The notes below the pieces were generated by a model. The model worked only from the letters and a program-made list of their open reading frames with translations. It ran no database searches and was not told where the DNA came from. A stretch of DNA of 64,000 bases from Bacilli bacterium (GTDB taxonomy: Bacteria > Bacillota_I > Bacilli_A > RFN20 > CAG-826): positions 53,206 through 117,205 of the forward strand of contig JBAZGG010000001.1 of assembly GCA_041653015.1 (NCBI GenBank). Reading direction: 5' to 3'. The position numbers and the translations under genes were made by a program. Below are positions 8,340-8,600 of this stretch, one piece after another. The number at the start of each line of letters is the position of its first letter. The first letter of the stretch is position 1.

Positions 8340-8600
8340 GAGCCCTTTCTTATCATTAGCAGTACTTCGGTAGTGGTGCGTTCGGTCGGTGTCAGTTATC
8401 GGTGCGTTCGGTGGGAGCGTCCAGGGAAATTCAGTTTGTTCCTTTGAGGGAAAAGGGGATTGTTCTCCCACAAAATCTTTGTGACAAGACAACCCCATTT
8501 ATCACGAATGAGGCAATAATTCTGTCAATCAATAACGCACAGAAAATACATAGAAGCACCTTGCAATTAACGCGGGGTGTTTTTATTTAATATACAAAGT
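8340..8600 (+). other. GC-rich (roughly 50% against a ~33% background) non-coding element with internal repeats and helices; candidate structured RNA or 3'UTR
   Basis: 12-nt direct repeat GGTGCGTTCGGT at 8375-8386 and 8401-8412. UUCG-loop hairpin TAC-TTCG-GTA at 8363-8372. 7-bp helix GTGGGAG(8411-8417)/CTCCCAC(8465-8471). No credible ORF. A terminator follows immediately. Confidence 0.35.

Follow-up and report, generated by a model that had tools for sequence, protein, structure and literature searches.

A G+C-rich, hairpin-rich spacer beside a DUF3990 module of an uncultured Bacilli lineage as the possible right end of a transposase-less cassette with Tn7/Mu-type ends

What does a G+C-rich, hairpin-bearing stretch of DNA do between a DUF3990 module and a helicase gene? 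The stretch in question, 8340-8600, was flagged in a sequence-only reading of a 64-kb piece of DNA from an uncultured Bacilli MAG; the whole piece, 64,000 nucleotides, is called the window here. The gene order around it is rpsF-ssb-rpsR, the DUF3990 gene, a gene for a protein of 193 aa, the flagged spacer, a DEAD/DbpA helicase gene (8750-10579), a lipoprotein-like gene, gdpP, rplI and dnaB. The lipoprotein-like ORF between the helicase gene and gdpP (10735-11472) contains tandem SESVPD repeats and has no Pfam match. Three readings of the flagged interval had been offered, namely a small RNA (sRNA), a cis-regulator and a decayed G+C-rich remnant. The last came closest, and the other two found no support. 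We assign a probability of roughly one half to the explanation that the interval is the right end, with its flank, of a transposase-less cassette with Tn7/Mu-type ends, and that it is at the same time a 3' UTR.

The interval is enriched in G+C, but less than first thought. Its G+C content is 42.9% for 8340-8600 and not about 50%, and the background in the 64-kb window is 38.0% and not 33%. Only the portions 8339-8420 (55%) and 8340-8480 (49%) stand out; 100-nt windows with at least 51% G+C make up 1.3% of all. The richest portion is a G/T-skewed plus-strand spacer of 82 nt (8339-8420), which lies between the stop of the 193-aa partner gene and the right arm of an inverted repeat. This spacer holds a repeated 12-mer, candidate hairpins at 8339-8345/8378-8384 and 8397-8402/8408-8413, and a block of 23 nt (8345-8367) that is invariant between the window species and its sister species.

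The claim that the interval lacks a credible ORF was borne out. A Pfam search with five local ORFs returned no match, and in the comparison with the sister species all reading frames but one had stops in at least one species. The sole frame open in both is poorly conserved (20/31 residues). For a 77-aa minus-strand ORF, three weak multi-stretch matches were the only ones among 1.84 billion proteins. A pseudogene fragment was therefore rejected, since the five ORFs in Pfam and the search with the 77-aa ORF gave no translated similarity to a protein family. A small ORF beginning in the right arm was also rejected on inspection, because its frame is not the same in both species.

The sister species is the only close relative that was found, and it was reached via contigs encoding an identical RpsR (L035, L037 and L038). 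Among 5.8 billion proteins, the helicase has one close relative at 93% identity, and the next is at most 48% identical. The sequence 8324-8480 is common to both species at 78% identity and the neighbouring spacers are at 71% and 85%, so that this shared core diverges at about the rate of the spacers next to it. In the shared alignment 18 of the 23 substitutions are transitions.

Each of the motifs singled out in the sequence-only reading is present, but apart from the terminator none is preserved intact in the sister species. The 12-mer GGTGCGTTCGGT occurs exactly at 8375-8386 and 8401-8412, and its first copy becomes AGCGCGTTCACC in the sister species; an exact repeat of at least 12 nt arose in 3 of 2000 shuffles of the flagged interval. 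The UUCG hairpin TACTTCGGTA at 8363-8372 has a 3-bp stem and turns into UACUUUGAUG. The 7-bp helix between GTGGGAG (8411-8417) and CTCCCAC (8465-8471) is found, and its 5' strand changes to GCGTGGT. What stood from the sequence-only reading is the general description of non-coding, repeat-containing DNA downstream of the DUF3990 module that ends at a real and conserved terminator.

The interval, which had been put forward as one element, is not a single unit. About 90 nt (≈8481-8570) are absent from the sister species, and an extra terminator-like hairpin (T1, 8550-8586) lies inside. The ~90-nt segment takes in T1 together with one strand, the 3' one, of the stem that closes the minimum-energy (MFE) fold. 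Part of it, 8478-8546 on the minus strand, is a degenerate inverted partial copy of 8399-8475, which starts with the end-like sequence TGTGACAAGACAAC at 8480. This copy gives rise to a long palindrome and to the stem that appears to close the MFE fold. A repeat search pairs 8452-8474 with 8478-8500 and 8396-8408 with 8534-8546, and in local alignment the segment scores 30 (p ≈ 0.05) against the window arm and 38 against the arm of the sister species.

Sequence variation was also observed just beyond the second terminator (T2). In two of three samples of the sister species the sequence after T2 departs (ATTATCGAGAGAATCGAGATAAAAA) and the contig then ends (L037 5906-5927 and L038 2511-2520). A further contig from the sample of L038 (L031 1-60) has a second, slightly different copy of T2 before the helicase gene. 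These observations suggest a strain-specific insertion or duplication right after T2, and thus a rearrangement hot spot.

A discrete sRNA or cis-regulator gained no support in any of the tests run, which comprised Rfam, folding, RNAalifold and a promoter search. No Rfam family matches the flagged interval. At the gathering score nothing was found in the whole 64-kb window except a tmRNA at 22391-22776, the region 7000-10000 gave no match at E ≤ 1, and for 8290-8660 at E ≤ 10 the best match was terminator-driven and reached 22 bits against a gathering score of 54. The tmRNA (126 bits in Rfam, tag peptide DNSYMSNRNVAFAAA) is the sole Rfam-recognised RNA of the window. A tRNA-like or tmRNA-derived attachment fragment was rejected, with ARAGORN finding the tmRNA only and no self-similarity to the tmRNA.

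Folding gave the whole interval a z of -2.33 on the plus strand versus +0.32 on the minus strand. The significant value is due to a window-specific palindrome, produced by the ~90-nt indel with its inverted partial copy, and to the two terminators. For the shared core, z was +0.36 in the window and -0.16 in L035, no better than shuffles. In a three-row alignment, RNAalifold identified five pairs changed on both sides, including 8339/8384 (C-G to U-A) and 8398/8412 in the hairpin 8397-8402/8408-8413 (A-U to G-C). The energy and the compensatory count were nevertheless within the range of column shuffles. The energy was -25.15 compared with -25.56±3.8 for 300 column-shuffled alignments, and the 3 compensatory pairs compare with 1.9±1.2 in the shuffles, 82 of 300 of which reached 3. 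No convincing promoter for a discrete RNA was found in the window or in L035; the latter has a weak promoter-like site, ATGTCA-17-TATCAT, the -35 of which is poor in the window (2/6). These data are a lack of support for conserved RNA structure and not proof of its absence, as the power to detect such structure is low with only two species.

The sequence-only reading had overlooked an inverted repeat that brackets the whole DUF3990 module and to which the 3' half of the interval belongs as one arm. Over about 55 nt, the right arm (8421-8472, plus strand) resembles the left arm (6905-6957, minus strand) in reverse complement; the left arm begins 8 nt after rpsR. In the window species, a spacer-versus-spacer comparison gave the arms a score of 30, a value that none of 1000 shuffles (19.0±2.3) reached. 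Taken by itself, the sister species shows no significant similarity between its arms, as 173 of 1000 shuffles reach the score.

Each arm contains two bipartite direct repeats of 19 nt, 24 nt apart and inverted between the arms, which we regard as candidate protein-binding sites of the form AGGGAAA-N6-TTGTTC. They are located at 6912-6930 and 6936-6954 (minus strand) in the left arm and at 8423-8441 and 8447-8465 (plus strand) in the right arm. The exact motif occurs three times in the 64 kb, always in the arms, and the fourth arm site has two mismatches. The four-site layout is identical in the sister species. The half-sites are conserved, and the N6 spacers differ both between the arms and between the species. 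Since the half-sites are kept while the N6 is variable and non-complementary, the arms are better explained by bipartite protein sites in DNA than by pairing of RNA. The idea that the two arms pair as RNA over a long range, in an RNase III-type stem around the operon, was rejected on inspection, because the N6 spacers do not pair and the interspecies changes are uncompensated.

The left arm has the terminus TGTGGAGG, and the right arm ends with ...CTCCCACA. The outer end is TGTGGAGGAACAA on one side and, as the reverse complement, TGTGGGAGAACAA on the other, giving TGTGG...CCACA. Compared with the Tn7 termini, which read TGTGGGCGGACAA (PMC1475584), the cassette ends match at 10/13 and 11/13 positions. 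A DnaA-box cluster, suggested by the CCACA ends, was rejected, as there was no enrichment and no box in the region. Outside the arms, a perfect 5-bp repeat, AAATC, flanks the unit of 1,568 bp (6905-8472) in the window species. The left copy (6900-6904) lies 4 nt after the rpsR stop (6894-6896), and the right copy (8473-8477), identical to it, abuts the right terminus, so that the pair is a candidate target-site duplication. In the sister species (L035) the flanking repeat has decayed to ATATC and ATCTT. That arm similarity, termini and direct repeat should have come together by chance is unlikely.

Only two genes lie between the arms, and there is no transposase and no tnsA, tnsB, tnsC or tniQ. 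The DUF3990 protein, which we take to be ART-like, is encoded at 7096-7758 on the plus strand. It matches the PADLOC candidate defence model PDC-M42A (6e-36) and also the PADLOC candidate phage-defence models PDC-M13 and PDC-M10; a literature match for DUF3990 is PMC7955679. The gene for the 193-aa partner (7742-8323, plus strand) overlaps the DUF3990 gene and encodes a C-terminal Xre-type HTH. The partner itself has no match among PADLOC, Pfam or NCBIfam models, and its homologues P0129, P0130 and P0134 carry PF01381, PF13443 or PF12844.

The module has its own promoter on the plus strand (7059-7087, TTGACA-17-TAATAT), with the ATG at 7096 8 nt further on and no Shine-Dalgarno sequence. The segment 7058-7087 is 87% identical over 30 nt to L060 1306-1335 and L061 594-623, which belong to modules with a partner protein of 54% identity, and on this sequence evidence it is likely to be the conserved promoter/operator of the DUF3990 module family. 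A second promoter, that of the helicase gene, is found at 8714-8741 on the plus strand (TTGTTT-16-TGgTATAGT, with an extended -10, 8 nt before the ATG at 8750); 8690-8749 is identical to the relative save for one base (8726). In the DUF3990 gene as in the helicase gene, 8-9 nt separate a good -10 from the start (7059-7098 and 8714-8752) and a Shine-Dalgarno sequence is missing; the mRNAs of the two genes are probably leaderless.

Three plus-strand terminators or terminator-like hairpins are found in the region. The rpsF-ssb-rpsR operon now ends at an intrinsic terminator (6967-7000) situated directly inward of the left arm; L035 retains this terminator, with a compensatory change in one pair (U-A to C-G). 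T1 appears in the MFE fold as GCACCUUGC/GCGGGGUGU followed by U5; it is present in the window species only, absent in L035 and uncalled by the consensus terminator scan. T2 (8603-8627), the hairpin that the sequence-only reading had placed immediately after the element, was confirmed by the terminator scan and is conserved in both species. Its stem is identical between the species, with the loop TCCG in one and CGTG in the other, and the stem is kept in L031, L035, L037 and L038.

Related DUF3990 modules in other genomes were compared with the one in the window. Modules of the P0123, P0124, P0125, P0126 and P0128 types have neither the arms nor the G+C-rich piece, and the idea that these are an integral component of the module was therefore rejected. 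Partner relatives of 47-64% identity adjoin a convergent ABC-transporter, MatE or endonuclease gene or another toxin-antitoxin pair. Because the distant modules share the promoter and lack the arms and the G+C-rich piece, the conserved unit extends from the promoter to the stop of the partner gene. Repeats that might bound P0123-type modules were sought at strain breakpoints, and these breakpoints turned out to lie elsewhere. In another lineage (L047 4700-6000), no gene is called in about 1.5 kb behind a DUF3990/partner module; this stretch has 52-60% G+C in a contig of 46% G+C and a strong T-over-A skew. Three other contigs end inside it, and it has no Rfam match at E ≤ 0.1 and no tandem repeat.

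The search for the element elsewhere, which had been proposed with the sequence-only reading, revealed no homologue of the G+C-rich piece beyond the same locus. An nhmmer search with a two-species profile of this piece, against 434 kb of fetched loci and the 64-kb window, found the same locus only. No second copy of the cassette end was detected in JGI metagenomes, in viral contigs or in the rest of the 64-kb window. The metagenome scan with the outer site recovered the same locus (L057) and five matches without the inner site, and the scan of viral contigs for the end pattern gave no match. No empty site was found either; the cassette is present in each of the six contigs that encode the identical RpsR. 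Outside the locus, a single sequence bears a resemblance to the cassette end, a 29-nt stretch, AGGGAAATGGCGATTGTTCTCCCACAAAA, in a metagenome contig from the study series of L057 (L056 961-989). It matches the outer right-arm site at 93%, in a different context, without the inner site and with a terminator following, and the resemblance is probably due to chance. Two further origins of the G+C-rich piece were rejected. An rRNA fragment or an rRNA mimic for the DbpA helicase was compared with the E. coli rrn operon, where BLAST found nothing and the Smith-Waterman score equalled the shuffle mean, and there was no meaningful match that would indicate phage or plasmid origin.

According to the explanation that we prefer, the common ancestor of the two species would have received a 1,568-bp cassette (6905-8472), 8 bp downstream of rpsR and with a duplication of AAATC. 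A DDE transposase of the Mu/Tn7/Tn552/Tn5053 kind, which may have been supplied in trans or since lost, would recognise the arms as DNA. The cassette would have brought with it the terminator at 6967-7000, the promoter, the DUF3990/HTH pair and the 82-nt G+C-rich spacer, and T2 would be the original terminator of rpsF-ssb-rpsR, displaced by the insertion. The flagged interval would then consist of four pieces, namely the 82-nt spacer, the right terminal repeat, AAATC with the ~90-nt lineage-specific segment, and T2. The ~90-nt segment could be a later local inverted duplication, or could have been deleted in the sister species. As RNA, the flagged stretch would be a long 3' UTR of the DUF3990 operon, ending at T1 in the window species and at T2 in the sister species. 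An empty site would be expected to read TAAGCAAAATC joined to TTTGTG (...GCA AAATC TTTGTG...). The element now appears fixed and is probably immobile.

A bolder version of this explanation is possible but doubtful. The segment 6905-8472 would be a miniature, transposase-less relative of Tn7-like elements that attaches at the 3' end of rpsR, a site not described before, and ferries a defence module made of the DUF3990 (presumably ART-like) toxin and the HTH protein. The G+C-rich 82-nt piece would be functional, with sites for the transposase or a host factor, or as a small RNA acting on the toxin system.

Among the alternatives, a genus-specific structured RNA or functional 3' UTR deserves to be weighed most closely, even if we consider it unlikely. 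The RNA would be an sRNA derived from the 3' UTR or transcribed from a promoter of its own (-10 TATCAT, in the invariant block), would extend from about 8335-8365 to T1 or T2, and would act in trans or on the toxin/antitoxin mRNA. A G+C-rich island between flanks near 30% G+C, the strong G/U skew with a z that favours the plus strand (-2.33) over the minus strand (+0.32), the terminators at the 3' end, the five pairs changed on both sides together with 18 transitions among 23 substitutions, and the weak promoter-like site ATGTCA-17-TATCAT in L035 are all in keeping with such an RNA. However, the window-specific palindrome and the terminators give rise to the significant z, the core values (+0.36 and -0.16) and the RNAalifold values are ordinary, the helices named together with the 12-mer are unconserved, Rfam has no match even at E ≤ 10, and the -35 in the window agrees at 2/6 positions. 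Moreover, half of the putative RNA copies a DNA repeat that is found, inverted, 1.5 kb away. A neutral remnant, in which the G+C-rich piece is a functionless decayed gene or foreign DNA carried along with the cassette and the arm similarity is incidental, would fit the divergence at spacer rate, the missing homologue elsewhere and the proneness of the region to rearrangement (the 90-nt indel and the strain variants after T2). It is distinctly improbable in this form, because the open frames searched show no protein similarity and are broken or poorly conserved, both species have retained a high G+C content within an A+T-rich lineage, and arm similarity, termini and direct repeat would all have to be coincidental.

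The bipartite sites may have a different meaning if they are operators of a non-mobile regulator that loops or insulates the module. This regulator would be the 193-aa HTH partner or else a factor of the host. The conservation of the half-sites with variable spacers would be expected for operators, and so would the symmetric placement of the sites around a single operon encoding an HTH protein. Yet the sites are non-palindromic whereas Xre-type operators usually are palindromic, and they lie about 105-150 nt upstream of the -35 (7059) and 100 nt downstream of the operon. As distant modules share the promoter sequence and lack the sites, an operator of the family is more likely to be situated at the promoter. 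The operator model also has no role for the TGT...ACA termini and the abutting 5-bp repeat, and we judge it very unlikely. A 5' leader or attenuator, for instance a thermosensor, that controls the DEAD/DbpA helicase through termination at T1 or T2 would surprise us most. The interval is upstream of the helicase gene on the same strand and the terminators lie between, but an extended -10 promoter close to the consensus precedes the ATG of the helicase gene itself by 8 nt, and no conserved antiterminator pairing was found. A conserved helicase leader was rejected after a comparison with 29 genome loci (helicases at most 51% identical) and three metagenome loci (47-48% identical), in which no similar sequence was found; the metagenome loci, the closest other helicase loci, have spacers of 97-160 nt.

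The cassette explanation accounts for the arms, the termini and the direct repeat, and it treats the spacer at 8339-8420 as presumably neutral. The G/T skew of this spacer, its invariant 23-nt block and its three to five compensatory pairs are without a positive explanation. The locus can serve as a cautionary case, since a G+C-rich, hairpin-rich and terminator-flanked spacer that looks like an sRNA reads as a mobile-DNA scar on comparison. If the transposon explanation is true, it illustrates the delivery of a DUF3990 (PDC-M42-like) module, a candidate for defence or a toxin system, to a place beside an essential ribosomal-protein operon in uncultured Bacilli, by an insertion that supplied a new operon terminator and displaced the old one. 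It would also hint at a safe-harbour site adjacent to rpsR for elements with Tn7/Mu-type ends. The current understanding of these systems is unchanged by our findings.

Several known systems share features with the locus. Like sRNAs derived from 3' UTRs, the flagged stretch comes directly after a stop codon, is read in the direction of the gene before it and runs up to a Rho-independent terminator; unlike them, it gave no evidence of a structure kept between species, of a promoter inside it or of a site for processing, and its 3' end is T1 in one species and T2 in the other. With REP/BIME sequences the arms have in common that they are imperfect inverted repeats in operon 3' regions, but they are not dispersed (no further copy in 64 kb), are 1.5 kb apart, and have TG...CA ends and a flanking duplication. 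The two genes agree with DUF3990 toxin/antitoxin-like or defence modules (PADLOC PDC-M42) in the PDC-M42A match, the overlapping pair and the shared promoter. They differ in that the partner has no PADLOC or Pfam match, and the non-coding stretch is outside the conserved unit of the family.

Mobile insertion cassettes and MITE-type non-autonomous elements, for example MIC231 of Bacillus cereus, are closer. As in these elements, passenger genes without a transposase are bounded by terminal inverted repeats and a short direct duplication; the difference is that no cognate element with the same ends was found and that the cassette is present as a single copy, at one location, in both species. The term mobile insertion cassette or MITE occurs in PMC6199540 and PMC6542083.

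The comparison with Tn7-like elements concerns the ends above all. The general end design is shared by Mu, Tn552 and Tn5053, and rpsR is, to our knowledge, not a described attachment gene. Tn7-like elements are bounded by TGT/ACA, carry several TnsB sites per end and generate 5-bp duplications (PMC9881144). At 1.57 kb the cassette lacks tnsA, tnsB, tnsC and tniQ, no other copy of it was found, and its ends are symmetric (2+2 sites with a 24-bp period) whereas those of Tn7 are asymmetric. Because there are no transposase genes between the arms, it can at most be a non-autonomous Tn7-like derivative. The likeness lies in the 5'-TGT...ACA-3' termini (TGTGGAGG at 6905 and CTCCCACA ending at 8472), in the several candidate sites of about 20 nt that are directly repeated within each end and inverted between the ends, in the 5-bp flanking duplication and the defence-type cargo, and in the position of the cassette a few bp downstream of a conserved essential gene.
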